Below are positions 1 to 38,510 of a stretch of DNA of 64,000 bases, one piece after another; the stretch's first letter is position 1, and every line of letters starts with the position of its first letter. The translations under genes were made by a program, and so were the position numbers. The stretch is from an uncultured virus (IMG/VR IMGVR_UViG_3300014043_000231) (Duplodnaviria; Heunggongvirae; Uroviricota; Caudoviricetes), in IMG/VR virus record IMGVR_UViG_3300014043_000231; one strand, 5' to 3'. Below the pieces are notes generated by a model that did no database searches, was not told where the DNA came from, and worked only from the letters and a program-made list of their open reading frames with translations.

Positions 1-1296
1 GGAAGCGATGATGTGTTCAAGTATAACCCAGCAATCAGGAAGGTTAAGGTAATCATCCCGGAACCCGCGAAGCAGCGTAATCCGAAACTACATGATAGGA
101 CTGAGCACCTGATTGCGCTCGGCAGCCAAGTCAAACAAAGCGTTCTCAAGCAAGTGAAGGATGACATACGCGGTTTGCATGCTGTTAGGGTGAAGGGTGG
201 TAAGGTTGGTTCACTGAAATTCACCAGTGAAGTGAACTCAATTAACCTACCGCAGTATGGTGTCACATGGCGGGTTAAGGGAAACTCTAATAGGATTAAA
301 ATACAGGGCATCCCCGGTTACTTGTATGTTAAGAACCTGCAACATGAACTCTTTAACACGCAGTATGATTATAATCTCGCGAACGCGAGATTATTGCGTC
401 GTTCGGATGGTTATTATATTGCTATAACAGCTTACCTGAGTAATGAGGATTATAAGGATAGGAAGGATAAGCATGATGCTAAGGTAATGAGGAAGGAACC
501 AGCATCGGATACTTACATTGGTGTTGATGCTGGTTTGCAGCACCAGTTCATTATGAGCACGAATGGTGAACCTGTTTACAAGGATGCATACCGGAGTGAA
601 TCGAAGCGGTCTAAACGCGCGAGAGCGCATCAGAGAATGAAGAAGCACGGCTCGAAACGGTATGATAAGTGTAAGCGGGTTATTCGTCAGGATTCGTCCT
701 ATGGTTGTTAAGCATGTTTGAAACTATTTGTATTCAGGATGAGCATTTTCAATCATGGTTCAGGGTGAATGGTTGTAAGATGAGTGATGGTATCCTCGGT
801 CGGGTTTACGCTGAATTGCGCGGGCTTGCTGGTGAGTCATCGCCGCGTGTCCTCATGTGCGATGAGTGGCAACCCACGACACAGTATTGTGCGTTCTGCG
901 GGCATTGTACTAAACATAAACTATCAGAGCGCGTGTTCCATTGCGCGTATTGCGGTTTTGAAATGGATCGGGATACTCACGCAGCATTGAATATGATTAT
1001 CCTCGCGTTGGAACCATTGCCTGCTTACTGGTGGCGATTATCTGAGTTTAAACCACTGGACTCAGTTAAAAGAATGGATAGTGGTTTAACCGTGCGTGAG
1101 AGCGCGGTTATTAATCACGCTGGTCTGCATTCAATTGCAGGGAATGTGAGTCGATTGGTTACACCAGTTGGCACTCTCGTGTCTGATGGTGATTACTGTC
1201 CAATCGCGTTTCCCGGCCAGTGAACCCACAGTGTTAACACTTGTTAATTCTGAGCATTATGCTGAAGCCCCGCGCTTCAGCGCTGGGGTATCTCAC
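1..1296 (+). mobile_element. IS200/IS605-family element (left part outside window) carrying a split tnpB
   Basis: TnpB motifs followed by a right-end hairpin GAAGCCCCGCGCTTCAGCGCTGGGGTATCTCAC (1264-1296) ending in TCAC; composition differs from flanking DNA. Confidence 0.85.
13..1223 (+). pseudogene. tnpB: TnpB-like RNA-guided nuclease split into two frames (13-711 and 705-1223)
   Basis: RuvC-I YIGVDAGL in ORF1; RuvC-II ICIQDE, zinc finger CAFC...CAYC and RuvC-III DRDTHAALN in ORF2; frame break and apparent deletion near 695-710. Confidence 0.85.
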
Positions 1297-1899: not shown

Positions 1900-3186
1900 T
1901 TATATTTTTAGTTTTGACAATAATACAGGGATTGGTTTATCAGGATTATCAATCATATATTTAATACTTTCTATTATTTCATCATGATTATTAAGCCAAT
2001 CATGTTCCCATATGAATGCAAGACGTATTCCTATCATTTCAGCAGCGGTTCGTTTCAACTTATGATATGATTCTGGTGTAGTATCTCTTTTTGACATCAT
2101 GGCATCACCATGCCACCAATCACCGTTATATTCAAATGCGATTCTTAATGACGGAATGAATATATCCATTTGCTTTTGACGTGCATCTTTTGAAATGTTA
2201 ACATCAGCGATTCCAAGAATTTTCATTGCTTTGCTGAAACAAGCGCTTCTATATTTCTTGATTTCATCCGCATATGTTGGCAATAATGAACATAGTTCAT
2301 CGGCTAATTCATTTTCCTCATTAGATTCACGGAACGCGCAAGCAGGACATCCATGCCCTTGAACGCGCGTATTCGGCGCAGCCTGCCATTCCTTTCCACA
2401 TTCAGGACATAACCACCAGTATTTCACAATTGTCCCGGGCATGACATCGCATGGTTTCACATTACCATTCTTAACCGGATGCCATTGCGCGGCAACCTCT
2501 GGATATAAGGTTTGCAAATCATTAAAACCGGTAAGAATACGCTGATGATTGCAATATGGACAACCATCACCGCGCGTGCGAGCAAGACAAGTTGCCTGCC
2601 AGTTTCCATTGCAATGTTTACAATGCCACCATGGAATTTGTCTGGTTCCATTCACGATGATTGTTTTTGTCCCGGGCATGACATCGCATGGTTTCACATT
2701 ACCATTCATTTTCCAAAACCATTGTCTTGCTATATCAGGGTGTGTTGTCATGAGATCATTGAAACCACGTCGTAATAATCTATGAGAACAAACTGGACAA
2801 CCAGCACCAGGTTTCGCCTGACATCTGTCATATATATCTGTTTGCCAGTCAAAACCGCATTTATTGCAATGCCACCATGCTTGCATATTGCTTGTACATG
2901 AAACCATATCAGGCGTGAAACCTTTATTCAATAATGGATGCCATGTCGCCGCCACATCAGGACGCTTTTCCTGCAAGCTTTTTCCGGTAGAACGGCTTAT
3001 AATTCTTGAACATCGTGCGCAACATCTATTCCTTTTATGGTTCATGTCATACATTGTATTCATGAATGGCTCATTACAATACGGACATGTCCACATTATA
3101 TCGGTTTTATAATCATTATCAGGAATAGCGTTAATGTCAATGCCAATATTGCATTCAGGACGAAATAAATCTGTTTTCCAGTTCAT
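1900..3186 (-). CDS. repeated zinc-ribbon (treble-clef/DUF4379-like) protein with C-terminal PD-(D/E)XK-like nuclease domain
   Basis: Repeats of P..A..WHP..N...P......WW.C..CG..W...R..G.GCP.C; C-terminal MDIFIPSLRIAFEYNGDWWH. Confidence 0.85.
   Translation of the reverse strand: MNWKTDLFRPECNIGIDINAIPDNDYKTDIMWTCPYCNEPFMNTMYDMNHKRNRCCARCSRIISRSTGKSLQEKRPDVAATWHPLLNKGFTPDMVSCTSNMQAWWHCNKCGFDWQTDIYDRCQAKPGAGCPVCSHRLLRRGFNDLMTTHPDIARQWFWKMNGNVKPCDVMPGTKTIIVNGTRQIPWWHCKHCNGNWQATCLARTRGDGCPYCNHQRILTGFNDLQTLYPEVAAQWHPVKNGNVKPCDVMPGTIVKYWWLCPECGKEWQAAPNTRVQGHGCPACAFRESNEENELADELCSLLPTYADEIKKYRSACFSKAMKILGIADVNISKDARQKQMDIFIPSLRIAFEYNGDWWHGDAMMSKRDTTPESYHKLKRTAAEMIGIRLAFIWEHDWLNNHDEIIESIKYMIDNPDKPIPVLLSKLKI
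2431..2707. repeat. 40-bp exact internal duplication within zinc-ribbon gene (2431-2470 and 2668-2707)
   Basis: tgtcccgggcatgacatcgcatggtttcacattaccattc occurs twice (NGNVKPCDVMPGT). Confidence 0.85.
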
Positions 3187-3262: not shown

Positions 3263-4393
3263 TCAGTCGGCCTTCAGAAGATACTTGTTGCTGATGGTCT
3301 TAAAATGCTTCCATTCATCATGGAAACCATCAGGCAATTCACCGTCATAACGCCATACGACACCTTCCGCGAGGCGATTCTTATCCAATGCGGAATGAAT
3401 GCCATCAACCATGTTCAATGCCGCATCCATCATATCAAGCGGATCGCCGCCAGTATGGAATGGAAGCACCAAATCCAATTGCGGAACGACAATATCCTTA
3501 ACCGGTTCCACATCAGCCGGATTCATGCGTTCACCATCAATGAGGACATTGAACGCATGGAATTCAATGTCCTTACAGTTCAAACGATTACCGTTAATAC
3601 CGGGGCCGGTTGATTCGCCTTGAATGGCGACGGACACCGCATTCGGATACAATGCATGCAATGCATCCAGTCGAGCGTTCATGTCATAAGCATCATAATT
3701 ACGCCAATACACATTCACAGTTCCGTTAACATTGCGGAACGTGTTATCATCAGCGCGCTTAACCTCATTATTGCGAGAGCAAACGCCATCACGATAACCA
3801 TTCGGCTGTTCATCATCCTTCACACGATAATAAGTCGTGGAAGTTCCATCCAGTTTTTCAGATGGATGAAACTGCTTAATGAATTCATCCGTGTGTTCAT
3901 AACCGGCGAACCAGCGAATCATGGAAATCAAATTCTGAATTCGTTCCTCATCGGTACGGCTAAGAAACGACGGCCAGCTGCTCATGTTAGCAGGCCGTCC
4001 AATGATTTCAGGCGGATCATACTTCTGCACACCGAGCAGTTCACTGACATCCGTGCCTACGTCAATGTCCTCATTGATGTCAAATGCATCCAATGGAAGC
4101 GCAAGTCCCTGCGAAAGCTGCTTGCGCAGTTTAACAGTGCGCAGGACAACGCACATTTCACCTTTATCATTCTCACGGTTCTTACCACGTCCGGCAAGGG
4201 AAGCGAATTGTGGTTTATCCAATGGAAGCATGCTGTCAGGTTCAAAATAAATAATCTTATCACCCTCATGCATGTTCTCATCCTTGCCGATTACAACCGG
4301 CCAGCCGCCGATATGCGCGGTTTCAATCCTGTCCGCATCGGGAATAGGCGTGATGCGGTCAATAATGCGAATAGCAGCCATTTTACGAGCCAT
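3263..4393 (-). CDS. RNA ligase, DRB0094/Rnl2-like
   Basis: N-terminal PIPDADRIE...YFEPDS..P module; motif I SEKLDGTS, motif III QGE, IIIa FHAFNV, IV EGVV, V FKTISNKYLLK. Confidence 0.9.
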   Translation of the reverse strand: MARKMAAIRIIDRITPIPDADRIETAHIGGWPVVIGKDENMHEGDKIIYFEPDSMLPLDKPQFASLAGRGKNRENDKGEMCVVLRTVKLRKQLSQGLALPLDAFDINEDIDVGTDVSELLGVQKYDPPEIIGRPANMSSWPSFLSRTDEERIQNLISMIRWFAGYEHTDEFIKQFHPSEKLDGTSTTYYRVKDDEQPNGYRDGVCSRNNEVKRADDNTFRNVNGTVNVYWRNYDAYDMNARLDALHALYPNAVSVAIQGESTGPGINGNRLNCKDIEFHAFNVLIDGERMNPADVEPVKDIVVPQLDLVLPFHTGGDPLDMMDAALNMVDGIHSALDKNRLAEGVVWRYDGELPDGFHDEWKHFKTISNKYLLKAD

Positions 4394-4548
4394 ATTTATC
4401 CCTTTCATTCAAAGCTGCATTCATTGTATCATATGATTACATTGAAATCAAATCGTCGTATCGTATGTGTCTCGAATGCGGATAATATAAAAAATGACAC
4501 CAATGCTTTATATACATTGATGCCATTTGAATATTATTTTATAAAAAA

Positions 4549-5166
4549 TCATCCGAAAAACGTCATGACCGCCAATAAACCGATTATCAGGAATGGGATG
4601 ATTTCAATGAGAACACTGATGACGCTACCGGTCAGCATGTGTTCATTATTCACGGATTTCAAACCATTTGATTCCGGTCCGCCGTCATGATTACATGCAA
4701 TCATCCACCGGACATAACCAATGACAATGAGAATAACACCGCAATCCATTGTGAGACACCATGGGCATAATACATGAATGAACATGATGCTTGCGAGAAG
4801 CAGCCATCCTGCGAACAGAACACAGAAAGCGACACCGAGGCCGAGCAACCATTTGATTTGTTTAATCGGACGATAACCGAACATGAGCGCGCCGGTGAAA
4901 CCAATGAATATACCAAATGCAATCAAACCGAAAAACGCATTCGGAACCTGCGTGCCCCATAATGGTATCAGATTAGCATAAGCGCTTTTTGACACGCTGG
5001 AACATGACAGTTTACCATTCACATCACAACCGAGTACAGTATCCGGTGTTTTCGCGAGAATCAAACTGTCAACGCTTAATGCGCATGCCGCCAATGCCGC
5101 GATGCAACTACCAATGAACATGATGACGGCATTATAAATCCTGCCTGTCCTGATTAAACGAATCAT
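4549..5166 (-). CDS. vitamin K epoxide reductase (VKOR) family membrane protein
   Basis: Loop cysteines GCD...SCSSV, PNAFFG motif, active-site LCPWC, several TM helices. Confidence 0.9.
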   Translation of the reverse strand: MIRLIRTGRIYNAVIMFIGSCIAALAACALSVDSLILAKTPDTVLGCDVNGKLSCSSVSKSAYANLIPLWGTQVPNAFFGLIAFGIFIGFTGALMFGYRPIKQIKWLLGLGVAFCVLFAGWLLLASIMFIHVLCPWCLTMDCGVILIVIGYVRWMIACNHDGGPESNGLKSVNNEHMLTGSVISVLIEIIPFLIIGLLAVMTFFG

Positions 5167-5220
5167 AAGAAACCAAAACCTTCCGATTGAATGTCAGCAT
5201 TGTATGCAATATCAACAATG

Positions 5221-5532
5221 TCAACATATTTTAATTGTTCTCGCATAATTGAATATTTTATCATCCGGTTCACCGTTATCTTCCATTTCCATGAGCGCTG
5301 ACACTGCATTCTGCACAGTTCTGTATATTTTACTATCCGAACCTGTTATCAGATAAATGAAATCAATGAATCCAGGTGTCGCGCAATTCACATCAAGCCA
5401 TTCAATCCATGTCACGGCACGAATGCCATCAATGGAATCAGGCATGTGAATTATCGCCGTATCATCAAATTTGCAATCCAAACAGCCATTAAGATATTCA
5501 TTCACCACCTTATTAATAATATTAGTGTCCAT
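5221..5532 (-). CDS. hypothetical protein
   Basis: 103-aa ORF co-oriented with neighbours. Confidence 0.6.
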   Translation of the reverse strand: MDTNIINKVVNEYLNGCLDCKFDDTAIIHMPDSIDGIRAVTWIEWLDVNCATPGFIDFIYLITGSDSKIYRTVQNAVSALMEMEDNGEPDDKIFNYARTIKIC

Positions 5533-5547
5533 GATAACATGATATCA

Positions 5548-6960
5548 TCATTCATTCAATGCCGGATACCATTCGGTTTCATTGAATGGCGGCATTGAAC
5601 GCCATATTTGCATGCCGGTGAACGCAATGGTTATGATAATCAGACAACATATTATTCCAATGAGCAGATTCACCATTAGCGTATCCCTTGTTGACGGCAT
5701 ATCACGCCATTTCCAGAATGAAAGCACTGGAATCATGAGTGCAAGCATGAACACATAACGGAATGAGAAAGTTGACGGATACGGTGCAACAATACAACTT
5801 GCAACATGGAACACTATAAGCGCGGTTATCGCAATGATGAACACAATGATTTCACTGTCATCATCAATCATGTCCCGAATAACCGTTTTCATGCTCATGA
5901 TGATTCCAATGAATAATAGGATTATCATGATGACCGCAAGAATGAACATCATGGTTCCGAGCATGAGTTGCATCCTGTCATCATATTTGAAAGACTGGAA
6001 TAACGCGCTTTTGAATGTACCGAGAATAATGTTGCTTTCATTATAATCGCAACCTGCATAATCAATGTTACATACATAAGGACGGAATAATGATGGGAAT
6101 GATGAAAACCTATCCCACAGATTACCGGACAGGAACATTTCAGCTGGTTTTTGAATATACAGGAACGGCAGACCATACTGATAATGCTGAATCATAGGAT
6201 ACATGAAACCGAGTATTGACGCGATGACACCCGCATATGCTCCCTGAATTATGATTCCACATGCGCGCACATCCGCATGATGTCTAATGCTTCCAATGAT
6301 GAATACAATGAATGCAATGATGAGATAAATCGCATAACCATATTTCACGCTCATTCCAAGCCCCATGATTATTCCGATGCTGGCCGCATTCGACAAATCA
6401 GGTTCAATCCACCATTTCAACAAAAACAGGATTGTCAATCCTTCCATAACATACAGTAATGGATCAGGTGAAATCCACGCACTTGCATAAACCAATGTCG
6501 GTTGAAACGCAATGAACGCAATGAGGACATTACGAATGGCATGATTGCTTATAAGCATTCTGAGGATACGATTCAGAATAATTATGAATATGGTTATGAA
6601 AACAACCGATAATGTTTTCAAACTGTTTGCAATGACAGCATCAGATAAACCGGATAAACGGAATAGTTTAATCCATAATGCCGCAATCCAATAATATAAC
6701 GGCGGGTTGCTCCAACTCCATGTGTCCATTGTGTTCCAACCTGGCGTCGCCGGGAAATTATCCGCCATCCAGAACGCGAATGACGCATGCCCCGCATCGG
6801 CATTATACGCATAAGAATCAAACTGGCGGGAATCATATGGTGTTGCAATCGCATACATTGAACGCATGATTAAACTCATAAGCATTATCATGAACGCGCC
6901 GATACCATAATAATCACGGACATGCCGAATAATTGAATGCATTGTGATTTCCTTTCCCAT
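5548..6960 (-). CDS. GT-C fold membrane glycosyltransferase (PMT/ArnT-like)
   Basis: About 11-12 TM helices; first loop with D...H and NPPLYYWIAA motif; GLGMSVK. Confidence 0.75.
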   Translation of the reverse strand: MGKEITMHSIIRHVRDYYGIGAFMIMLMSLIMRSMYAIATPYDSRQFDSYAYNADAGHASFAFWMADNFPATPGWNTMDTWSWSNPPLYYWIAALWIKLFRLSGLSDAVIANSLKTLSVVFITIFIIILNRILRMLISNHAIRNVLIAFIAFQPTLVYASAWISPDPLLYVMEGLTILFLLKWWIEPDLSNAASIGIIMGLGMSVKYGYAIYLIIAFIVFIIGSIRHHADVRACGIIIQGAYAGVIASILGFMYPMIQHYQYGLPFLYIQKPAEMFLSGNLWDRFSSFPSLFRPYVCNIDYAGCDYNESNIILGTFKSALFQSFKYDDRMQLMLGTMMFILAVIMIILLFIGIIMSMKTVIRDMIDDDSEIIVFIIAITALIVFHVASCIVAPYPSTFSFRYVFMLALMIPVLSFWKWRDMPSTRDTLMVNLLIGIICCLIIITIAFTGMQIWRSMPPFNETEWYPALNE

Positions 6961-7036
6961 GCTATTTCAATCATATGATATCAAAAAATGGGAACAGTGA
7001 AACCGTTCCCATTAATGATTAGAATTCAACCGATTA

Positions 7037-8116
7037 TCAGTATTCCGAACTTGCGGCATCAGCCGGTTGACTGGAATCAGCTGATTCAGCACCTGTTGTC
7101 GCAGTTTCAGTGGATAAATCAGTTGATTCATCTGTTTCATCAGCAGTATATCCAATTAATGAACCAACATTTGATGACATACCGGCATATGGTATAGCCT
7201 GAATTTTACTACTGACGGTTCCAGCGGACGCAGCGACACCACCGAATGATGCGAACAGAATGACGCTTATGAGAACAGCGACAATGGACGCTCCGACATG
7301 TGAATGTTTAATGAGTCCAATCACACCGAGAATCAATGCGATGAGTCCAATGAGCGCGATTCCACCAGCGAACACAATGCCGAATAATTGGAAACTACCA
7401 GTGAAAATAAGGACAGTGAATGCAATGAGCGACCATGCGAACGGGAATATACCCGCCGCCAAACCGAGTCCAATGATGCCGAAACCAGCATCCTTGTCCG
7501 ATGGCACTGCTGACTCCGCAGTCTTCTCATCATTCTTGTTTTTACGTGGTTTACGAGCATGTTCCTTATTACCGACATCATTCAAATCCGGTGCGGCATC
7601 CGCTGGTTTATCCTGCGGAGCAGTGGATGATAATGATTGCATTGAATCCAATGGATCATCATCCTCCACTGGCGGGACAAAAGGACGAGCAGGCGCAGCA
7701 TGCGGACGCTGAGCTGGCATTCCAGCATTCATCTGAACCGGTGATGCCGGGGTTGCGAAAGGATTACGAGCATCAGGTTTCAATTCCTGCATACGACGAG
7801 CATTATATGCTTCCTCCGCTGGCATGGAAACAGGTTGAGACGGCATTGGCGAATCATCCATCGTGAAACCCTCATCATCAAAATCAAATGACATATCAGC
7901 GGGCGGTTGAGTCTGAGATGCCGGCATTTCCTGTGGAACCTGCTGCTGTGTATTCATTGCAGGCATTGGATTCACTGGGCGCGACTGAACAGGTTGCATT
8001 GGACGCTGCGCAGGCGTTTGCTGAAATGGTTGCTGTGGATTCATTGCAGGCATTGGACGCTGAGGCGCAGCTGGCACAGGGCGAACATTACGATTCGGTA
8101 ACGGCATGATAATCAA
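7037..8116 (-). CDS. Pro/Gln-rich membrane protein with three C-terminal TM helices
   Basis: Low-complexity N-terminus, then hydrophobic helices and a Ser/Thr/acidic tail. Confidence 0.75.
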   Translation of the reverse strand: MIIMPLPNRNVRPVPAAPQRPMPAMNPQQPFQQTPAQRPMQPVQSRPVNPMPAMNTQQQVPQEMPASQTQPPADMSFDFDDEGFTMDDSPMPSQPVSMPAEEAYNARRMQELKPDARNPFATPASPVQMNAGMPAQRPHAAPARPFVPPVEDDDPLDSMQSLSSTAPQDKPADAAPDLNDVGNKEHARKPRKNKNDEKTAESAVPSDKDAGFGIIGLGLAAGIFPFAWSLIAFTVLIFTGSFQLFGIVFAGGIALIGLIALILGVIGLIKHSHVGASIVAVLISVILFASFGGVAASAGTVSSKIQAIPYAGMSSNVGSLIGYTADETDESTDLSTETATTGAESADSSQPADAASSEY

Positions 8117-8392: not shown

Positions 8393-8726
8393 TCACCTCC
8401 CATTCGCAGTATTATAAATTTAACCAAACAGCCATATGCTGTTGCTACTGCCGTTATCACGGACATGACTGGAATCAGCACCGACATTACAGCTTTAATG
8501 AATACAAGTATTGTTTTCAATGCGTCCATATCATCATTCCTTTCCCTCATCCGTAACCATAATATCCAATCATGAACGCGGATTGACACGAGATGATATG
8601 ATTTGATTCATCCCATTGAACACTTCATGAATCACATCATAAAGTCGCGAGATCATTCATTCCCGGAACAACCCCGCGACCTTTAATCGGTGATTTGAAT
8701 AATGTCATGTATTCATGATATCAATA

Positions 8727-11120
8727 TTATCTACTTATAGGATTGATTTTCTGGACTTTTGCCATGATTGGTTTCAAATCATCAGGTGTCAGGGTTTCCT
8801 TATCCAACAGCAATCCGGCAAGTTCATCCAGCACGCTCCTGTTCAATGTCAATGCGTTCACTGCATTCATATGAGCACACGAAATAATATTACGAGTTTC
8901 AACATCAATGTCATGCAATGTTTCATCAGATAATGGCAGCTGGTTCGCATCGGAACGATCAAACGTCCATACGCCAATACCGAGCTTATCGTTGAAACCA
9001 TACTTAGTGATGATATCACGCGCAAGGGAAGTTGCCTTATCAATGTCATTGGATGGACCCGTGGATACATCCTTGAAAACAAGTTCCTCCGCAGCCCATC
9101 CGCCGAGCATGTAATTCAACTGGCCGAATAATTGCGAACGAGTGTAATTCGTCCTGTCATCATCACTGTTGATTGCAGTGTAACCGAGAGCATGCGCACG
9201 AGGCAGAATCGTAATCTTATTCACCGGATCAGCACCAGGTGTCGCCATTGCAGCCAATGCGTGACCGGCTTCATGATACGCGGTAAGACGCAAGGTTTTC
9301 TTATAATCCTCCCTGCTTGTTTTCTTCGGACCCATGAGAGTGCGATCAATGCCTTCACTGATGTCATCAATGGTAACAGCATCCCTTCCCTCACGGACAG
9401 CCATGAGCGCAGCCTCATTCATCACATTAGCCAATTGAGCGCCACTGAAACCGGAAGTGTTCTGTGCAGCCCAGTGCAAATCAGCATCGTTCTGCAATGT
9501 TTTACCGCGAGCATGGATACGCAGAATGGCTTCACGTCCAGCCATATCCGGTAAATCAACTCCAATCTGCCTGTCAAAACGCCCCGGACGAGTCAATGCT
9601 TTATCCAGAATGTCAGGACGGTTCGTGGAAGCGAGAACAATAATGTCTCCATTGCCTTCAAAACCATCCATCTCAACAAGCAGCTGATTCAATGTCTGTT
9701 CACGTTCACTATTACCATCTGAACGATTCCCACGCGCTGAACCAATGGCGTCCAATTCGTCCAGGTAGATAATATTTTTACCCCCATTTTTCTTTGCTTG
9801 CTCGAACAAATTACGCACTCTTTTCGCGCCTAGTCCTGCGAACACCTCTATCAGGTTTGAAGCCGCACAATAATAGAACCCGGCGTTCACTTCCCCGGCG
9901 AGCGCTTTCGCAAGCAGTGTCTTACCGGTTCCGGGCGGACCATACAGCAACACGCCTTTCGGCAGTTTCGCTCCGATAGCCTCATATTTTTCCGGGTTCG
10001 CAAGCATATCCTTGATTTCCTTGAGTTCAATGAGCGCAGTGTCCTCACCGGCAACATCATTGAATGTTACATCAGGCTTATCGGATTTCGCCTTATCATC
10101 ATCCTTGCCTATGCCTCCCATGCCGCCAATGAGTCCATCCTGACTCCTCATAATCCAAATGAACAAACCGACTATGATGAAAGTCGGAAGCAATCCGGTG
10201 ATGAGATTCGTAATTGTGTTACTACGATAACCGATCACCTCATAACCTTTAGCATATTTGCTTTTATCCAATATTTTACCGAGATTCTCGCGTTGTCCGA
10301 CTGACCATCCGAAAACGACTTTCTTACCTACTTGTTCATTATCGCTTTTACGAGTGTAATCATTTTTGAGTTCAATGAGCACTGTTTGCGCCGTATCCTG
10401 AACGGTTGCTTTCTCAACTGCCTTATTGTCTTTCAACAAGGCGAAACCTTCATTCGATGGGATTTCCGCTGGCTTCGATCCTTTCTGAAAACCTGTGATA
10501 ATGCATAGTATCGCAAGCACTGCAACCAGTACTGCTATCCATGCGTGCAATGGTTTCTTGAACCATTCAGTCAGTTTATCCATTAGTGATTTCTTATCAT
10601 CTTTTTTGTCGGAATCCTGTTTTTTATCCTGTTCATCCTGCCATTTGTTTTCAACTGTTTGCAATGTCGCCAATGCTTTACGATACTTATCCAATCTGCG
10701 TTTCTCATCCTCTGAATCACGCTGGTCGGATGGAAGCCTGTTCACATCCAGATTATTCATGATATCGGCAATTTTCACATGGCGCGCGGCTTCATTATCT
10801 TTAAGATTATCAATGTAATCCGCATAAGGCTGATGTTTCTCATGTGTGAGCAGTTGGACGCATGCTATCACATTCTCATCGAAACCATCCGCGCGCATGT
10901 CATCGGCGGTGTAACCGGTGTCTTCCATGGTGTCATGCAGCCATGCGACTGTTTTCTCAAAATCAGTGTTCACATGCTCTGCCACATATCGTGGATGCAG
11001 AATGTAATCATTGCCTCCCTTGTCTTTCTGGCCGGCATGGCGTTCGCGGGCGATTTGTTCCGCTTTCGCGAGTTGTTCCTTGCCGGTTAATGGTTTCCTG
11101 TTGCCAATGGATTCAGGCAT
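8727..11120 (-). CDS. ftsH: ATP-dependent zinc metalloprotease FtsH with N-terminal RelA/SpoT-type HD hydrolase domain
   Basis: Residues ~15-155 HAGQKDKGGNDYILHP...AWLHDTMEDT...VKIADIMNN; two TM helices; Walker A GPPGTGKT, Walker B IYLDELD, SRH TNRPDILDKALTRPGRFDR, HEAGH. Confidence 0.95.
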   Translation of the reverse strand: MPESIGNRKPLTGKEQLAKAEQIARERHAGQKDKGGNDYILHPRYVAEHVNTDFEKTVAWLHDTMEDTGYTADDMRADGFDENVIACVQLLTHEKHQPYADYIDNLKDNEAARHVKIADIMNNLDVNRLPSDQRDSEDEKRRLDKYRKALATLQTVENKWQDEQDKKQDSDKKDDKKSLMDKLTEWFKKPLHAWIAVLVAVLAILCIITGFQKGSKPAEIPSNEGFALLKDNKAVEKATVQDTAQTVLIELKNDYTRKSDNEQVGKKVVFGWSVGQRENLGKILDKSKYAKGYEVIGYRSNTITNLITGLLPTFIIVGLFIWIMRSQDGLIGGMGGIGKDDDKAKSDKPDVTFNDVAGEDTALIELKEIKDMLANPEKYEAIGAKLPKGVLLYGPPGTGKTLLAKALAGEVNAGFYYCAASNLIEVFAGLGAKRVRNLFEQAKKNGGKNIIYLDELDAIGSARGNRSDGNSEREQTLNQLLVEMDGFEGNGDIIVLASTNRPDILDKALTRPGRFDRQIGVDLPDMAGREAILRIHARGKTLQNDADLHWAAQNTSGFSGAQLANVMNEAALMAVREGRDAVTIDDISEGIDRTLMGPKKTSREDYKKTLRLTAYHEAGHALAAMATPGADPVNKITILPRAHALGYTAINSDDDRTNYTRSQLFGQLNYMLGGWAAEELVFKDVSTGPSNDIDKATSLARDIITKYGFNDKLGIGVWTFDRSDANQLPLSDETLHDIDVETRNIISCAHMNAVNALTLNRSVLDELAGLLLDKETLTPDDLKPIMAKVQKINPISR

Positions 11121-11256
11121 TAATCATCCTTTCGTCAAGATATTTTGTTTTGAACATATTATTGTTGTTTTGTTCTAATCATGAACTCAATTATATCACA
11201 TCATAGACAATTGCAATTTGTCGTAATGCCGTCATTGTCGTGATATCATATTATGT

Positions 11257-12759
11257 ATGGATAGGAATAAAGAACTTGGACAGGTTTGGACACCAGATTG
11301 GCTTGTATGCAACATTCTTGATAATATTGGATATACTTGTGATAACCCGGCAATAATAAATAGCAAAATAATGGAGCCATCATTTGGATCGGGAGCATTT
11401 TTGATTGAAATTACGCGCCGGTTAATTGACGCATGCGAAAGATATGGAATGAAAACAAGCGACATAGAAGATACTGTTAACAGAAATATATATGGTATCG
11501 AATATGATGCAAATATTTTCATGCAAACATTACAATCATTAAAATTATTATGCTCCTCATATGGATTTAATGTTCCTTTTAATAATCTTGTAAGAATGGA
11601 CGCCCTTGACTATAATCCAGCAGTAGATTTTGATTATATTGTAGGTAATCCTCCATATGTTAAGATTCAATCATTATCAAACGATATGCGAGAAAAAATG
11701 TCAAAATTATCAGCTGCATCTGGAAATACTGATTTATATATTGCCTTTTATGATATATGCATTAATTGGCTTGAATTGGATGGTAAATTATCTTTTATAT
11801 CACCATCAGGATGGATGAAAGGAGCCTCCCAAAAATACTTTCGTGCAATGCTTTCATCAACTGAAAGCATAATAAGTATTCATGATTATTCAGATATTAG
11901 AATATTTGATGGTGTAGACACTTATACAGCGGTTCTTACATTAAGATCTCCCGTTAAGTCAATGGTAAAACATATTTCAGAATTTACATATTATCGCATG
12001 AATTCAAATAATCAAATGGCGTTTTCCACTCATGTGAAGTTTAATGATTTTAAAGACGGAAAATCATTGAGATTACTATGCCTAAATAGCAATGAAAAGA
12101 AAATACTTAAAATATGCCTTGCATCAGATTATAAAAATTCTATACAAAGCAATTTCATTGTATCAAATGGAGTTGCAACGTTATCCGACTCTGTATTTTT
12201 AATTAATGATGGCAATTTTAATAATGATTCTCTTATATATCCTGCCATTAAAGCATCGAAATACCATGGCGGAAGCATTGATGCTAAAATTATATTTCCA
12301 TATATAATGGACGCATCTGGCAGATTTAACATAATTGATGAAAATGAATTATTACGTAATCATTCATTAGTATATAATCATCTTATTACAAATAAAGACA
12401 TTTTGGAAAAACGAAAAAGAGATAAAGGAACTCAATGGTATGCTTATGGCAGAAGCCAATCAATACAGATTACCAATAAGCAAAAACTAATTATCAATCC
12501 TATTGTATCACCGGATTCAAATATATCTGCTTATATTATACCAGCTGGAACAATTATATATTCTGGTTTGGTAATCACCGAATATGATAATGGAATGCCA
12601 CTTAAAAAATTAATACCAATAATAGAGAGTAATTTATTTCATGAATATGCAATGATAGTAGGATCTCCAATGAGCGGAGGTTATAGAAGATTATCATCAC
12701 CGGATGTTAAATCATTTAATATGGATGTCATTAATAACAAACATTATTATATGTCATAA
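11257..12759 (+). CDS. N6-adenine DNA methyltransferase (gamma class, TaqI/Eco57I-like), apparently orphan
   Basis: GQVWTP, MEPSFGSGAF, IVGNPPY, DLYIAF; markedly AT-rich. Confidence 0.9.
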   Translation: MDRNKELGQVWTPDWLVCNILDNIGYTCDNPAIINSKIMEPSFGSGAFLIEITRRLIDACERYGMKTSDIEDTVNRNIYGIEYDANIFMQTLQSLKLLCSSYGFNVPFNNLVRMDALDYNPAVDFDYIVGNPPYVKIQSLSNDMREKMSKLSAASGNTDLYIAFYDICINWLELDGKLSFISPSGWMKGASQKYFRAMLSSTESIISIHDYSDIRIFDGVDTYTAVLTLRSPVKSMVKHISEFTYYRMNSNNQMAFSTHVKFNDFKDGKSLRLLCLNSNEKKILKICLASDYKNSIQSNFIVSNGVATLSDSVFLINDGNFNNDSLIYPAIKASKYHGGSIDAKIIFPYIMDASGRFNIIDENELLRNHSLVYNHLITNKDILEKRKRDKGTQWYAYGRSQSIQITNKQKLIINPIVSPDSNISAYIIPAGTIIYSGLVITEYDNGMPLKKLIPIIESNLFHEYAMIVGSPMSGGYRRLSSPDVKSFNMDVINNKHYYMS

Positions 12760-13594: not shown

Positions 13595-14338
13595 ATGGTT
13601 TCAACATCCAATAAGAATGGAAGGCATTTCAGCGGTTATTATGTGCAACCCGCATCAACCGGCAGGCATGGGAATGGCAGTATCATAATCGATGTTGATG
13701 AAACTTTATACGATAATGTTGCAACCATCGGGAAACATGCGAACAGATTCAGAGCGAATCTGATAACCGGTGCAATGTTCATCATCTCCGCGTTCATTGG
13801 AATACTGATCGCGTTGATTCCAATGATGTTCATTGGTTTGTATCGGATTCCATCACAGTCAATGATGGACACATTGCAACCCGGCGACAGGATTGTAATC
13901 AGCAGAATGTGGATGCATGATGACAATGTGAACAGAGGCGACATCATAGTGTTCCATGATCCCGGCGAATGGCTTGATGCTGGCAAGGAAGGCGAAACGC
14001 TAATCAAACGAGTCATTGGATTGCCTGGGGATACAGTGTCATCACTGGGTGATTGCAAGGTGCTTGTGAATGGTGAGATTATTGATGAGCCTTATGTCAA
14101 GGATGGTTGTTCATCGAACATTGCTTTCAATGTAACCGTGCCATCAGGTAAAGTGTTCGTCATGGGTGATAATCGCGGGAACAGCGCGGACAGCAGGTAT
14201 CATTTGAATGATGCCAATGGCGGCATGGTTCCAATTGTGAACATTATCGGTAAAACAGAAGGTGTGTTCTGGCCGTTGCATGACATGCGTTTCAATATTC
14301 GCAATGAATCCAGTGATGATTTGTGGTTCAATGAATGA
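13595..14338 (+). CDS. lepB: signal peptidase I
   Basis: TM helix, catalytic Ser IPSQSMMDTL, Lys LIKRVIGLPGD, GDNRGNSADSR. Confidence 0.93.
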   Translation: MVSTSNKNGRHFSGYYVQPASTGRHGNGSIIIDVDETLYDNVATIGKHANRFRANLITGAMFIISAFIGILIALIPMMFIGLYRIPSQSMMDTLQPGDRIVISRMWMHDDNVNRGDIIVFHDPGEWLDAGKEGETLIKRVIGLPGDTVSSLGDCKVLVNGEIIDEPYVKDGCSSNIAFNVTVPSGKVFVMGDNRGNSADSRYHLNDANGGMVPIVNIIGKTEGVFWPLHDMRFNIRNESSDDLWFNE

Positions 14339-14483
14339 AAACATTCGCAGTATAATCATTATTCATTGTAATAACATGAATCGCGATACATAAGTTTGAC
14401 TTTCAGTTGATGTTATCATTGAATTCATGTTAACATGATGATGTCAAACAAAAAACATTGGAAGATGTTGATTTACCATAAGA

Positions 14484-14906
14484 TTGGATTATTATGCTGA
14501 ACAGGCATATGGTGTGGAATTCCCTGAACTATCCGATGACGGTTGCGGGTATGTTAATGTTTACGATGTTAACAAGGCAATCAATGGTCAGGTTAAAATT
14601 ATTGGTGAATGGCGTAATCTGATTTACGCGCATGATGTCCATGCGATTAATCCGCAGGATGACATTCCATTGGAAATTGACATCACTGATAATAAAAATA
14701 AATCATTCATGGAATCAAACAATTGTCATAATGAACCATTATATTATGGGGCTTGCATTGCATGCAATGATAAGGATGATAAACCATTCTTGAAAACAAT
14801 GGCAGGCGACCTGATTGGAGAATCATTCATTTACATTGGAATTGAAATTGATGATCCTATCACTGGTTTAACTGGCGCGCAGGGGAGACTTGTGGGCGAT
14901 TGTTAG
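14484..14906 (+). CDS. hypothetical protein
   Basis: 140-aa acidic ORF, TTG start. Confidence 0.5.
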   Translation: MDYYAEQAYGVEFPELSDDGCGYVNVYDVNKAINGQVKIIGEWRNLIYAHDVHAINPQDDIPLEIDITDNKNKSFMESNNCHNEPLYYGACIACNDKDDKPFLKTMAGDLIGESFIYIGIEIDDPITGLTGAQGRLVGDC

Positions 14907-15052
14907 AAACATAATCCGGGAGCACCGGAACTCATTGAACACGAACTCTGCGATTGAATCCAATGTATGCATGATTGCATATGAAAACAGCAGAAGACAT
15001 TCTATATTCTTATGACTGCTTTCATATTCGCTATAATATAAGTTATATATTA

Positions 15053-15916
15053 TTAATTTGAATTAATATATTCTTGAAACGCTTTATTTATTTCATCTCT
15101 GTTAATCCAATAATTTCCACCAGATACTGATGATAATTGCCTAAAATTTATATTTTTGAATATATCTATTATATTATTTTTACTATATTTTTCATTAACT
15201 TTAATATAATGTTCCGCTTTTGAATTAGTTACTTCTGATAATGATTTTACTTGCCCGCTGTTTCCATTTATTGTAAAATCGGCTGATGCATCTCCCCGTT
15301 TTAAGAAAGAATATTCCTCCGGTTGTTTTGGTTTCATAGCACGTAAATCCAATTCTGGAAAAATACTGCTATTATTACACCAAATTTGAAATACTGCTGG
15401 AACATTATATTTATCTCCCCCGATTGTAAATGAATCATCTTTTAAACTATGGTTACATATAAGTCTGTAATCATTCGGTATGAATCTTTGATTTATTTCT
15501 TTCATGAAAATACTTGGTAATATGAATGCGATAACTGACGCATTCAATTCTATTGATTTTTTTATAAATGCTTTTGCCATAGATGATCTATTTCCAAATG
15601 GCGGATTGCCTATAATTAATAAATTATTATACGCTCCAATGTCATCACAATTAATTTTAAGCCAATCTGCTTGTTTTATATATTCTTTCATAGGGCATAT
15701 GTCAAATGAAAGAATACTGCTATTTTTGAATTCATCATGGTTTTTCATTGCTCTTATAAATGAACCATCACCTGCGCTCGGTTCAATAATTAAATCAAAT
15801 AGCGAAATCTCAATATATTTGAGAAGAACATCTATGCATTCATATGAAACATCATCGCACGTGAAAAAGGCATCGCGGGATTTTAAATCATTTAATTCGT
15901 CTATATAATTCGTCAT
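15053..15916 (-). CDS. amino-DNA methyltransferase
   Basis: DAFFT, IEPSAGDGSF, IGNPPFG, AFILP; very AT-rich. Confidence 0.88.
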   Translation of the reverse strand: MTNYIDELNDLKSRDAFFTCDDVSYECIDVLLKYIEISLFDLIIEPSAGDGSFIRAMKNHDEFKNSSILSFDICPMKEYIKQADWLKINCDDIGAYNNLLIIGNPPFGNRSSMAKAFIKKSIELNASVIAFILPSIFMKEINQRFIPNDYRLICNHSLKDDSFTIGGDKYNVPAVFQIWCNNSSIFPELDLRAMKPKQPEEYSFLKRGDASADFTINGNSGQVKSLSEVTNSKAEHYIKVNEKYSKNNIIDIFKNINFRQLSSVSGGNYWINRDEINKAFQEYINSN

Positions 15917-16460
15917 ATTCGTATTTCTTCCTCCATTCCTTCATCATATCGGAATTAATATTTATAGTTATACTATATTCAATATGTTCGTTATTTTTAT
16001 TTGATTCTTTTGTTCCATGAGATGGGCATCCAATAGATTTTATTTCTTTATCCATTTCCGATTTAGTCAAATACATTATTATTGAATTATCTGGATCATT
16101 ATAATCAATATATCCGACTATATATCCAGTTATGTTTTGCCAATTGCGTATTTGCCTTAAATTTAAGTTTTTTGATTCATTGGTTGTACTGAATTTATAT
16201 TCTATATATTCGGTATCTTTATATGCATCACCGCGATTTTCAGATGGCGAAATTCTTTTTAGGTTCAATTTTTTATTCATAAAATCTTCAATAATAAGAG
16301 ATTTCTTTTGTGCATTCATTGATCCGAGAATCTTGCAGAATGATGAAAATGAGCAATCGATAATATTAACATTTCCATCATATGTTTTTATTGAATCTAA
16401 TATTTTATTTAATTCATTAATTTTATCATTAATAATTGTTCTTATATCCTCAATCTTCAT
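15888..16460 (-). CDS. putative PD-(D/E)XK restriction endonuclease
   Basis: RGDAYKDTEYIEYKFS (GD...ExK); overlaps methyltransferase; same low GC. Confidence 0.6.
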   Translation of the reverse strand: MKIEDIRTIINDKINELNKILDSIKTYDGNVNIIDCSFSSFCKILGSMNAQKKSLIIEDFMNKKLNLKRISPSENRGDAYKDTEYIEYKFSTTNESKNLNLRQIRNWQNITGYIVGYIDYNDPDNSIIMYLTKSEMDKEIKSIGCPSHGTKESNKNNEHIEYSITININSDMMKEWRKKYEYDELYRRIK

Positions 16461-16760
16461 ATATACAATGATATCATTCTGTTTACATTGTGGACAACTC
16501 ATAGCAAACGTATGAATAGCATCAATGTCGCAGATCAACAATATCTAATAAGAGAAGTGCATGCATTCAGAAATGGCAATAACCATCATTCGCGGCGGGA
16601 ACCGCCGCGCGTAACGCGTTCATTCCGTTATTATCGATTTTATCAGATTGATTCATTCAGCCGTATTGCTTTCCATACCGGACAGGCACTCATCCCATTA
16701 ATCATCACGATTATGTTCATGGGGTTGTATCCATTAATTCAATGTTCTCGCGCATAGCTC

Positions 16761-16894
16761 ATTTCGATTCTGACGGCGATTTTACTTGTTTGTGAAGCGC
16801 GCATCGAAAACAAGGTTCACCACGATTCCGATTAAAGCACTCGTCCACGGAGCCGATTATTCTGCGCTCTGTGGACGACATCGATTTTCACTGA
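16761..16894 (+). repeat. ~134-bp dispersed structured repeat, copy A
   Basis: Aligns by eye with 53306-53437 (+) and 49669-49802 (-); contains cgtccacRgagc...gctctgtggacg hairpin. Confidence 0.85.
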
Positions 16895-17034
16895 AATAAT
16901 AATTTTAAAAATTAGTGGAAAATCATGTTGTTTTTCGCATCCATGTATTCATGTGCGATGACACGCGGAATTTGACTTATTTTATTATTTCCGTTATCAT
17001 GAATACAGTTGAAAACAAATCAGGCAATTAAGGA

Positions 17035-21169: not shown

Positions 21170-21949
21170 ATGATTACAGGAAATGGCATAACAAACATAG
21201 CTAAATTAAACATTGATTTTGAAGAGAAAGCGCGTGAACTCCAGCATGGCAATAACATGGAAGTGGATGAAACAATGGCACGCATCCGGTTGATGCATCA
21301 TAATAATACCAGTGTTGAAAGCATGATAACATCATTGGATAAATATAAACAACAAAAACTTAAAACCGCCGCCACCTATGCTGAAACCACTCCCGGTGAA
21401 CTATTATTGAAACTCATCAATGAACCTGATAACATGTTGGCCTATCCGATAATCGGCAAAACAACCAGCAGGATGGCTTATCAGGAACCATTGCAGTATA
21501 AAACGCTAACTGAACAATCAACCACAATATATGAACTTGTCAATCAGCCTAACAATAATAAAATCCTTGCTAATAAACTGAAATCATTGAACGCTTACAT
21601 GGAAACTAAAAGCATTGATTTCACTGGTAAGGCACAAGGCGCATCAGGTATTGAATACACTGTGTTCATAGCGGCTAAATACACTGCTGCGAATGGCGGG
21701 GCACAGGATAATCAGCGGAATGATTTGGAAACATTCGCGGAAGCAGCTACAAGAATACCGGCATCCGATAACATAATAATGGTACTGCTTGCGGATGGCG
21801 CATATTATAATAGCATGCCTCATTATAATCATCAATCATTCTATGATGCCATGCGTTCACAATATGCCAGTATTTATAACACGCGATTAATTGCTACGAC
21901 AACAACTGATTTTGATGTTAACATGAATGCAATGCTGACACGCATTTAA
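21170..21949 (+). CDS. putative restriction endonuclease
   Basis: KSIDF...AAKYTAANGGAQDNQ...LLADGAYY; convergent with and overlapping a methyltransferase. Confidence 0.55.
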   Translation: MITGNGITNIAKLNIDFEEKARELQHGNNMEVDETMARIRLMHHNNTSVESMITSLDKYKQQKLKTAATYAETTPGELLLKLINEPDNMLAYPIIGKTTSRMAYQEPLQYKTLTEQSTTIYELVNQPNNNKILANKLKSLNAYMETKSIDFTGKAQGASGIEYTVFIAAKYTAANGGAQDNQRNDLETFAEAATRIPASDNIIMVLLADGAYYNSMPHYNHQSFYDAMRSQYASIYNTRLIATTTTDFDVNMNAMLTRI

Positions 21950-22986
21950 CTATTCTCATTAATGGCTTTCCGCAGTATCATTCCAGCTTCCCGGAAAGCA
22001 AGCCTGCGCCGGTATTTACCATCTTTCCTTGCGCCCTTGAATGATGTCATGAACACATCATTGGTTTCATCACGCCATGAGTTCAAAATATGATTCGCCT
22101 TCATTATCTGAGTATCAGTGATAGGTTTACCATCCTTCCGGCTTATACGAGTCAAGGAACGGGATGATACTTTAATTTCATCCGGTGAAATATCACTGTC
22201 CATGCCACGCGCGAACCTGATATCCGCTGTATTCCCTGAATCCACTGCATGCAAACCGACATCACCATGCGGATCATTGAAAGTCAAGCCAATATCAGAG
22301 CCATTTGAATATAATGATTCCATTGATTTCAATTTCAACCCTGATAATGAATCAATCATGCGTCCAGTGTTATCATGAATCATTGTCATTCTGCCATCAT
22401 TGCCATACATACTCACATCATCATCAAATAATGCAAGGCACACTGGACAATCCGTATCATTGAACAGTCCTGCTTTCAATGAAATCACATGTGAACAACG
22501 TGATTTGTCAAATTTGCTTGTAATGAATGATTCCGGGATTATCAATGCGGCATGATCAGCATGTTGCAGACATGTGTCCAATGCAACCTGATATATATCA
22601 TCATATGGTTTCCCGCCATCATTAAAAGGCAAATGCCTGCGTGTCGCGCTATTACGGGCAAGATAAGGCGGATTAGTGATTATCAAATCATAATCCCCAG
22701 GAATGTTCAATAAAGTGTCCGCTGTGATAATATTAACATCATCAATGACCGGTTCAGGATTCGGTTGAATGTCAAATGCCGTCCATTTAATGCATGATTC
22801 CAATGCTGGCATGGTTTCACGAATATGACGGATTAATGACAGCGAACCGGCATAAGGTTCACACGCTGCAATGTTTTCATGAGCGCAAATACCATCAAGC
22901 CATTCTTTGAACACGGGCATGTAAAAAGGATTGCCTTCCGTCATCCATTGTCCATGTTCCCGTTTCATCAAACCGTAATCATCCAT
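21946..22986 (-). CDS. amino-DNA methyltransferase
   Basis: HGQWMT, CEPYAGS, ITNPPYLARNS, DDIYQ, LIIPESF. Confidence 0.85.
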   Translation of the reverse strand: MDDYGLMKREHGQWMTEGNPFYMPVFKEWLDGICAHENIAACEPYAGSLSLIRHIRETMPALESCIKWTAFDIQPNPEPVIDDVNIITADTLLNIPGDYDLIITNPPYLARNSATRRHLPFNDGGKPYDDIYQVALDTCLQHADHAALIIPESFITSKFDKSRCSHVISLKAGLFNDTDCPVCLALFDDDVSMYGNDGRMTMIHDNTGRMIDSLSGLKLKSMESLYSNGSDIGLTFNDPHGDVGLHAVDSGNTADIRFARGMDSDISPDEIKVSSRSLTRISRKDGKPITDTQIMKANHILNSWRDETNDVFMTSFKGARKDGKYRRRLAFREAGMILRKAINENS

Positions 22987-24891: not shown

Positions 24892-24997
24892 ATGAACAAT
24901 GATAGCATGATAATCCGGAACCCGCAAATCATGATAAGGAAACGAGCCGGAAGTTTTAGCGCTTCCGGCTCATGAGATAGGAAAAACATATGGACAA

Positions 24998-38430: not shown

Positions 38431-38510
38431 ACATACAATTATATCAATCACATGCAGGCGATGAACGCGCTTATCAATATATTGATTTAATCATTGAATA
38501 ATGATTCTGG

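Follow-up and report, generated by a model that had tools for sequence, protein, structure and literature searches.

What might an alarmone-hydrolase-type domain do at the cytoplasmic end of a membrane-bound protease? The question is raised by a single gene (positions 8727–11120) in a 64,000-nucleotide stretch of DNA, hereafter the window, from the uncultured virus record IMGVR_UViG_3300014043_000231 of IMG/VR, which is assigned to the Caudoviricetes. An earlier note on this DNA, made from its letters alone, had described the gene as a fusion of a RelA/SpoT-type HD domain to the N-terminus of FtsH, and had supposed a membrane-anchored hexamer that couples the removal or sensing of alarmones to proteolysis and may co-assemble with host FtsH to suppress the stringent response or defence by toxic small alarmone synthetases (toxSAS). 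Here we report that the HD domain is, by sequence and predicted fold, a member of the Aph1 family of (p)ppApp hydrolases rather than a generic (p)ppGpp hydrolase, and that the HD–FtsH architecture is real, conserved and, so far, apparently undescribed. From sequence and models, we propose that the fusion probably blunts bacterial toxin or defence systems.

Identity of the two modules

Direct translation of the minus strand gave one open reading frame (ORF) of 797 amino acids (aa) with an ATG start and zero internal stops, as the earlier note had read it, and the HD motifs quoted there (HAGQKDKGGNDYILHP, LHDTMED and VKIADIMNN) are all present (layout in Table 1). An intergenic region of 136 nucleotides (nt) separates the gene from a divergent methyltransferase gene starting at 11257; a promoter scan returned no more sites than were found in shuffled sequence.

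When the HD part was compared with all PDB chains using phmmer, the best match was 7smg_A, annotated '(p)ppApp hydrolase' (E 3.5e-25, residues 17–152). The hydrolase domains of Rel/RelA followed at E 6e-8 at best, down to 1e-5, with MESH1 at 2e-5 and PaSAH at 0.04; the Aph1 match is thus about 17 orders of magnitude better in E-value than those to Rel-type enzymes. Among profiles, PHROG phrog_990 matched residues 11–177 at 3.3e-46, whereas Pfam HD_4 (PF13328) stayed below its gathering threshold (17.0 bits versus 27.2); one relative, P0031, has PF13328 in its precomputed domain list. The match of the fusion protein to TIGR00691 was confined to the HD part (39.6 bits against a cutoff of 499.2, E 2e-10), and the RelA_SpoT, TGS and ACT domains that follow the HD in a long RelA/SpoT homologue (RSH) were absent among its Pfam matches.

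The predicted fold agrees with this assignment. An AlphaFold2 model of residues 1–160, computed from a 41-sequence family alignment, had a mean predicted local distance difference test score of 95.1, and a Foldseek search of the PDB placed the four chains of 7smg at ranks 1–4 (E 3e-10 to 1e-9; target-normalised template modelling score 0.91–0.94, root-mean-square deviation 1.5–2.4 Å, 38–39% identity), followed by human MESH1 at E 4.5e-6. The model can be superposed on almost all of 7smg. DSSP assigned nine elements to it, one of just 4 residues, and the last helix continues into the linker. Aph1 itself is a homotetramer with a compact eight-helix fold that lacks the extra C-terminal helix of dimeric small alarmone hydrolases (SAHs) (PMC10083569).

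The metal and catalytic residues H28, H42, H62, D63, E66, D67 and D119 are invariant in the 41-sequence alignment. The signature that sets (p)ppApp-specific enzymes apart from (p)ppGpp hydrolases comprises, in Aph1 numbering, D24, R96, D116, R119, K133 and Y134, with R96 lying away from the active site, and a D24R and R119A double mutation lets Aph1 hydrolyse ppGpp; of the homologues assayed, 12 out of 12 hydrolysed ppApp and two had modest ppGpp activity (PMC10083569). In the phmmer alignment, D24, D116, R119, K133 and Y134 correspond to D33, D125, R128, K145 and Y146 of the window protein, and R96 to N105, so that the signature is kept at five of its six positions. Because sequence, fold and five signature residues agree, we assign the HD domain to the Aph1 family on these computed grounds. 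The 'complete RelA/SpoT-type HD domain' of the earlier note is therefore real and complete, but can be placed more narrowly, Aph1 being its closest match by both sequence and fold.

The rest of the protein is an intact FtsH with two transmembrane segments (TM1 and TM2), preceded by a charged linker, as the earlier note had described: NCBIfam TIGR01241 matched residues 199–781 above its cutoff (615.4 bits versus 600), a hydropathy scan found exactly two hydrophobic segments (about 193–213 and 305–325), and Pfam recognized AAA (3.6e-39), AAA_lid_3 (1e-12) and Peptidase_M41 (2.7e-50), whereas FtsH_ext matched only weakly (E 0.018) and fell short of its gathering score. The N-in topology read from the hydropathy scan puts the HD domain, N-terminal of TM1, in the cytoplasm, again in keeping with the earlier note. 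Cellular FtsH of the TIGR01241 type has the same architecture from TM1 to M41 and shares all motifs with the window protein, but its N-terminus ahead of TM1 is short or low-complexity where the window protein has an HD domain and a linker. The closest named FtsH proteins come from Bifidobacterium and Actinomyces (47–49% identity over 72–76% of the query). Each module thus belongs to a known family; what appears to be new is that they are combined, and that this occurs in half-megabase elements with links to Bifidobacteriaceae.

Integrity, conservation and spread of the fusion

The junction at about 10550–10700, singled out in the earlier note as the place where an assembly artefact might show, is crossed by contigs of one RNA library and of three DNA studies that are independent of one another. 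For this check, contigs of four public runs (Logan contigs, not raw reads) were aligned to the window. Contigs of 20,540 bp (X3), 3,203 bp (X4) and 2,829 bp (X12) span 8500–11400, 8848–11400 and 8500–11283, respectively, and a 692-nt contig from the RNA library (X19) spans 10391–11079, from the HD domain through the linker into TM1; contigs of that library cover 19 of 30 bins, and such libraries can contain DNA. More widely, 17 runs contain at least half of the sampled words of the fusion stretch (20 rows from 13 studies, mostly of bovine gut), and a pattern scan of metagenomes returned a second, near-identical syntenic copy of the locus (L061). Together with the 66 distinct fusion sequences considered below, these observations leave virtually no chance that the gene is an assembly artefact or a read-through peculiar to one record.

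The sole indel within the ORF is an in-frame insertion of 3 nt after 10629, in the linker, which corresponds to a 798-aa form (P0002, L061). Of 40 variant sites listed, 30 fall in the ORF, 24 of them synonymous and 6 nonsynonymous (9 and 2, respectively, in the HD part). Because 24 of 30 are synonymous, the fusion gene is, judged from these variants, under purifying selection along its full length in natural populations. The same pattern scan yielded three further loci, namely a 3.7-kb relative (L062) and two short contigs (L063 and L064); an ORF of fusion length was not seen in L063.

To define how far the architecture extends, we searched the whole protein, and residues 1–160 separately, by word index in 5.8 billion proteins. 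Both queries returned one and the same set, and the FtsH-length proteins that matched the HD part all carried Peptidase_M41 (22/22), came from metagenome sources only and bore no name. An exhaustive phmmer comparison of residues 1–410 with 1.84 billion 50%-identity representatives gave 35,045 matches at E ≤1e-3; among the best 150 of these, only three (P0024, P0122 and P0031) span from HD to AAA. The fusions make up about 25 clusters at 90% identity, all metagenomic, three of which contain 177, 31 and 12 member sequences.

Residue conservation, counted over the 66 distinct fusions among 308 fetched proteins, extends to both active sites. In the HD domain, H28, D33, H42, H62, D63, E66, D67, K116, D119, N123, D125, R128 and Y146 are kept in 66/66 and K145 in 65/66. 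In FtsH, K400, D454/E455, R511/R514, G429, H616, E617, H620 and E679 are likewise kept in all 66, and F427 in 65; the middle pore residue is V in 47 and A in 19, and the resulting F-A-G pore loop differs from the F-V-G of cellular FtsH. Between these conserved modules, the low-complexity linker can be as short as 28 or as long as 237 residues, and many fusions carry an extra low-complexity leader of 80–140 residues. The FtsH cores show 46–99% identity.

In a quick maximum-likelihood tree, the element-borne FtsH proteins form one clade (support 100) on a long branch apart from cellular FtsH, here that of Bifidobacterium and Actinomyces, and all 10 fusion representatives fall into one subclade of 13 rows (support 93). 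The other three rows have no HD domain. They are P0027, P0125 and P0025, the last of which begins within the linker and probably reflects truncated gene calling. In the corresponding quick HD tree, 9 of the 10 fusion HDs group beside two short proteins, P0124 and P0127, and the HD of P0031, which also has a long branch in the FtsH tree, lies outside the other nine with weak support. The simplest history suggested by these trees would be a single fusion with a few later losses; a separate fusion origin for P0031 could also be accommodated, and we claim no convergence. No FtsH is attached to the nearest relatives of the fused HD, P0124 (176 aa, 60–63% identity) and P0127 (287 aa, 53%), the latter of which ends in some 140 aa of a different kind; the HD module may have come from such proteins, or they may represent a split form.

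The architecture was absent from each other collection searched. Of 445 matching records among GenBank phages, and of 2,474 in PLSDB searched by tblastn, none covers at least 80% of the fusion query; in IMG/VR, 21 loci carry FtsH or HD and none carries both. A motif-seeded scan of one genome per species (185,579 species) gave 39 loci, none reaching beyond residue 164, with the limit that a scan seeded with the query's own motifs may let distant or independent fusions escape. Only one of these genome loci (L029) has both genes, unfused, 3 kb apart and on opposite strands. Literature searches for the combination of HD and FtsH brought up unrelated papers only, those on huge-phage FtsH and on giant bifidobacterial elements returned nothing on an HD–FtsH fusion, and the words 'FtsH' and 'metalloprotease' are absent from the text supplements of PMC10083569 (6 files, one incomplete). 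The earlier remark that this architecture is unfamiliar among cellular FtsH proteins thus held across the species genomes, the phages, IMG/VR, PLSDB and the literature searched.

A proposed role and its alternatives

We lean, with modest confidence, towards an active (p)ppApp hydrolase that is flexibly tethered to the element's FtsH and serves in immunity or counter-defence against (p)ppApp-synthetase toxins. A single membrane protein would then present two independently competent catalytic modules to the cytoplasm. The HD module, as an Aph1-family pyrophosphohydrolase, would take the 3'-pyrophosphate off (p)ppApp to yield ATP or ADP and pyrophosphate; a disordered linker of variable length would tie it to TM1; and the intact FtsH, with its AAA+ unfoldase and M41 zinc protease, should assemble in the membrane as the hexamer typical of this protease. 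In an element-bearing cell, the HD domain would keep toxin-made (p)ppApp low, with the result of immunity or counter-defence against FaRel-type toxSAS, secreted synthetases or the MuF-Apk toxins that competing phages bring. FtsH would see to the quality control of membrane proteins and, with the two ClpP and the signal peptidase encoded nearby, supply the element's own envelope proteostasis. The RNA-repair-like set and the many methyltransferase genes of the window fit this context.

The length, variability and low complexity of the linker lead us to picture a loose tether and not a fixed allosteric contact. Its variability and disorder, and the existence of relatives without the HD, argue that the two activities are not mechanically coupled; the fusion would mainly buy co-expression and membrane anchoring of the hydrolase rather than an obligatory mechanical link. 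The carriers would be huge phages, probably of Bifidobacteriaceae-like Gram-positive hosts, with a proteostasis set of their own. The Aph1-type assignment of the HD moves the likely role from suppression of the stringent response to neutralization of toxins or defences. Of the functions that the earlier note had proposed, removal of a toxic alarmone is accordingly retained as the best reading, and suppression of the stringent response through (p)ppGpp is the less likely one, with D33 and R128 both kept; its co-assembly with host FtsH would be conjecture.

Known systems resemble the window protein in part. The closest for the HD domain is Aph1 of Bacteroides caccae (PDB 7SMG), which is of the same HD subfamily, shares the catalytic motif and is also borne by a mobile element, a temperate phage; it is, however, a soluble single-domain protein of about 149 aa encoded beside the toxin Apk2, whereas the window HD forms the N-terminus of a membrane FtsH (PMC10083569). 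The MuF-fused Apk toxins of temperate phages are (p)ppApp synthetases (PMC10083569), and exported synthetases have been described as a further source of (p)ppApp (PMC12691689). SAH-type hydrolases neutralize toxSAS products, as does ATfaRel, the SAH-type antitoxin of the (p)ppApp toxSAS FaRel in the actinobacterium Cellulomonas marina (PMC11782079). ATfaRel, whose HD hydrolase activity renders harmless what a (p)ppApp synthetase makes, is the functional model for the role proposed here; unlike the window HD, it is small, soluble and encoded in a toxin operon.

For the FtsH part, the Pseudomonas jumbo phages PA5oct and MIJ3 provide host-like FtsH on very large phage genomes (PMC7318152). In PA5oct, FtsH is part of a proteostasis island that also encodes ClpX, ClpS, ClpP and a heat-shock protein, and the window likewise combines FtsH with two ClpP and a signal peptidase. 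The PA5oct and MIJ3 proteins, however, are 37.7% identical to the window protein over residues 300–787 only and have no HD domain, nor is an HD gene annotated within 6 kb. Stand-alone 'HD-alarmone PDease' genes of jumbo phages have been interpreted as a counter to alarmone-based immunity (PMC7824862). These, like phrog_990, are phage-borne alarmone-type HDs without FtsH; in the phrog_990 profile the HD occupies positions 149–314 of 374, so its N-terminal part differs from that of the window protein.

Several observations weigh against the tethered-hydrolase proposal. Among the 72 ORFs of the window, a (p)ppApp or (p)ppGpp synthetase was not found at the thresholds used, so that no cognate toxin is in sight, and neither were capsid, portal or large terminase genes in Pfam and PHROGs. 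Positions 1–25000 had no megablast match in phages or plasmids, and scans of IMG/VR found neither relatives of two element-specific ORFs (573 and 734 aa) nor the fused form. Within the protein, the R96 equivalent, one of the six signature positions, is Arg in only 1 of 66 fusions (N in 43, S in 17, K in 4, A in 1). Aph1 is a tetramer and FtsH a hexamer, oligomeric states that do not obviously match, and anchoring offers no obvious kinetic gain on a freely diffusing small molecule. Finally, P0027 and P0125 sit inside the fusion subclade without an HD domain, from which it follows that the HD is dispensable for the element's FtsH. Predicted docking of the HD onto the cytoplasmic body of FtsH scored 0.00 and carries no verdict either way.

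Could the fusion have no functional meaning, two neighbouring accessory genes having been joined and tolerated through a long linker so that each module acts as if alone? The variable, disordered linker and the members without HD would fit such a history, as would the occurrence of stand-alone HD and stand-alone FtsH genes on viral contigs and of P0124 and P0127, the nearest relatives of the fused HD, without FtsH. Yet at least 25 clusters at 90% identity keep intact frames under purifying selection, and the expected precursor, unfused adjacency, was not seen: none of 9 viral FtsH loci has an HD in its flanks, and among the 39 genome loci only L029 has both. We regard this explanation as unlikely.

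Much the same degree of doubt applies to a joint anti-toxin machine, in which FtsH would unfold and degrade (p)ppApp-synthetase toxins, or factors that unleash them, while the tethered Aph domains clear (p)ppApp already present and return ATP or ADP to the ATPase as the toxin depletes the cell's adenylates. As part of this improbable joint claim, FtsH would sit at sites where foreign proteins enter or membrane stress is sensed. If it were true, the protein would be a membrane-anchored, self-fuelling immunity device of giant bifidobacterial phages, and (p)ppApp warfare would be a major selective force in Gram-positive gut communities.

Alternatively, the HD could act as a sensor or adaptor, with binding or turnover of (p)ppApp gating FtsH, or with the HD recruiting substrates, so that alarmone level and proteolysis are coupled. 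Retention of the fusion through the deep divergence of the FtsH cores is in its favour, and from known FtsH topology an N-terminal cytoplasmic domain would adjoin the AAA ring. Against this stand the retention of every catalytic residue, which befits an enzyme more than a pure sensor, the 8-fold length range of a low-complexity linker, unlike a fixed allosteric contact, and the HD-less members of the subclade; we think this quite improbable.

Equally hard to favour is the idea that the HD hydrolyses (p)ppGpp and lets the element suppress the host's stringent response. The RSH-type fold with its matches to Rel/RelA/SpoT and TIGR00691, the loss of the R96 signature position and the modest ppGpp activity of 2 of 12 Aph1 homologues (PMC10083569) all leave some room for it. 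It is opposed by the far stronger match to Aph1 with 7smg as the closest fold, by the HD_4 score under the gathering threshold and, most directly, by the invariance in all 66 fusions of D33 and R128, the equivalents of two Aph1 residues that exclude ppGpp.

Least probable of these is a macromolecular substrate, namely the 3'-pyrophosphate that CapRel/FaRel2-type toxSAS put on the CCA end of tRNA, which would make the HD a translation-rescue counter-defence: the window does hold genes reminiscent of RNA repair, two of them RNA-ligase-like and one a kinase-phosphatase, but Aph1-family enzymes are characterized on nucleotides only in the available text of PMC10083569, and a membrane tether would restrict access to tRNA.

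The fusion hints that (p)ppApp-producing toxins or defences matter to giant phage-like elements of Gram-positive, probably bifidobacterial, hosts. The (p)ppApp hydrolases were recognized as a family only in 2023, and here one is built into a membrane AAA+ protease; a catalytic domain added at the N-terminus of FtsH is of a kind not found in the literature searched. The fusion has been kept through long divergence in half-megabase uncultured elements that recur across cattle-gut metagenome studies, and it offers a natural, testable case of whether alarmone clearance and regulated proteolysis are linked. Should the modules merely be co-expressed, the gene would remain useful as a marker of the element family, and its domain architecture would still be new and clean.

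The carrier element and its other genes

The window has 34–45% G+C and is 87% coding under the standard code, and represents roughly one tenth of the likely carrier genome. Relatives of the fusion occur on contigs of 489–495 kb (four), 641 kb and 214 kb, and orthologues of the window's ClpP on contigs of 641,083, 214,427, 160,956 and 70,405 bp, sizes identical to those of fusion carriers. Because these sizes are exactly equal, the data point to a single family of giant elements in animal guts, with contigs of roughly 0.2–0.64 Mb. Megaphages of more than 500 kb (the ten largest 536–716 kb) have been described from the guts of cattle, sheep, horse and pig (PMC11662467). On balance, we infer that the carrier is probably a huge phage.

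The window also holds phage-typical accessory genes. No conjugation or partition gene was found among its 72 ORFs, no tRNA was found in it, and no Rfam family reached the gathering score. When another 31 ORFs, most of them without a known function, were scanned leniently against PHROGs, none matched a structural family; hits to 'terminase small subunit' (E 0.002) and 'Phage_sheath_1C' (E 0.0044) were too weak to be counted. The 573-aa ORF had only sub-threshold matches (0.77) in the protein atlas. We also rejected Microcystis phage MaAM05, the top FtsH match, as a phage precedent, its neighbourhood being cell-like (purB, glgX, proS, lepA).

As to the host, 21 of 22 organism-named ClpP relatives are from Bifidobacteriaceae (62–69% identity), and the FtsH and ClpP neighbours together point to this family as a possible donor or host. 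The low G+C of the element would be unusual for Bifidobacteriaceae. Paired adjacent ClpP genes, as found here, are typical of Actinomycetota. The window encodes wall-hydrolase-type proteins with CHAP, NlpC/P60 and CW_7 domains; of these, the CW_7 protein matched nothing in the phage collection, and the CHAP protein matched tail lysins of staphylococcal and enterococcal phages at 30–38%, which may be a weak hint of a Gram-positive host.

Table 1. Features of the fusion gene and of the surrounding window (residue numbers refer to the 797-aa protein)
Feature	Position	Strand	Basis or remark
Whole ORF: Aph1-type HD domain, linker, two-TM FtsH	8727..11120	-	Translation, profile searches, phmmer
Shine-Dalgarno GAAAGGA, 6 nt before ATG	11127..11133	-	Sequence read directly
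HD domain, aa 14-152, predicted Aph1-family (p)ppApp pyrophosphohydrolase	10665..11081	-	phmmer, alignments, AlphaFold2 model, Foldseek
HD metal/catalytic residues H28, H42, H62, D63, E66, D67, D119
HD specificity signature D33, D125, R128, K145, Y146			Signature from PMC10083569
K/D/Q-rich charged linker, aa 153-191	10548..10664	-	In-frame +3 nt polymorphism after 10629
TM1, about aa 192-213, preceded by basic stretch (N-in)	10482..10547	-	Hydropathy scan
Extracytoplasmic domain, aa 214-304	10209..10481	-	Clade-specific motif PSNEGFALLK
TM2, about aa 305-326	10143..10208	-	Hydropathy scan
AAA+ module with lid, aa 346-594	9339..10085	-	Walker A K400, Walker B D454/E455
AAA+ pore loop F427-A428-G429; second region of homology (SRH) R511/R514
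M41 zinc metalloprotease domain, aa 608-783	8772..9299	-	H616-E617-x-x-H620, third ligand E679
Transposase-like ORF (phrog_506), then ORF with Cas12f1-like TNB domain	1-1223	+	Window edge
Repeated-DUF4379 treble-clef zinc-finger protein	1900-3186	-	phrog_559, 4.5e-34
RNA ligase with PHA02142 OB-fold	3263-4408	-
Proline-rich membrane protein (359 aa, no family), PMT_2 glycosyltransferase (470 aa), VKOR homologue (205 aa)	4549-8116	-
DNA-methyltransferase-like, Eco57I/N6_Mtase type	11257-12759	+
Signal peptidase	13595-14338	+
DNA-methyltransferase-like	15053-15916	-	phrog_5172/799
Kinase (AAA_33/Zeta_toxin-like) fused to calcineurin-type phosphoesterase, 426 aa	17035-18315	+
DNA-methyltransferase-like, Eco57I-like	21946-22986	-
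Two neighbouring ClpP genes	23304-23891, 24241-24927	-
Hibernation-factor-like (Ribosomal_S30AE), just upstream of ClpP pair	25781-26140	-
Repeated-DUF4379 paralogue	27870-29807	+	phrog_559, 3.5e-26
SIR2-family gene	34657-35463	+
DNA-methyltransferase-like, Dam-type D12	37501-38451	-
Separate HNH gene	53640-54263	+
CobS/MoxR-like AAA ATPase, then 734-aa DUF7192 protein	59215-62636	+	phrog_249, 2.6e-54 (ATPase)
Second RNA-ligase-like ORF	63364-63999	-	phrog_562

Cell-like genes of the window include, besides the two ClpP genes, the signal peptidase, the VKOR homologue, the PMT_2 glycosyltransferase and the hibernation-factor-like gene, a cation-efflux protein and YqeY. The three genes at 4549–8116 lie downstream of the fusion gene on the same strand and, with FtsH and the signal peptidase, make up what looks like an envelope- or secretion-related block. 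The two RNA-ligase-like genes and the kinase-phosphatase resemble the T4 Pnk/Rnl set for tRNA repair in counter-defence.

A clear partner restriction enzyme was not seen in the window for its at least four methyltransferase-like genes, which may be orphan anti-restriction methylases. Gene content varies between copies of the element: the gap between the signal peptidase and kinase-phosphatase genes is 445 bp in L061 (13900–14345) and 2,697 bp in the window (about 14400–17000), where the extra ~2.25 kb holds three ORFs, including the methyltransferase-like one at 15053–15916, and this difference is an indel polymorphism between element copies. The family phrog_559, matched by both DUF4379 paralogues, is one of HNH/homing endonucleases, and the two ORFs at the window's left edge are likely to be a TnpB-type insertion sequence. 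At the other end lies the CobS/MoxR-like ATPase with its DUF7192 neighbour, a type of pair that is common in large phages.

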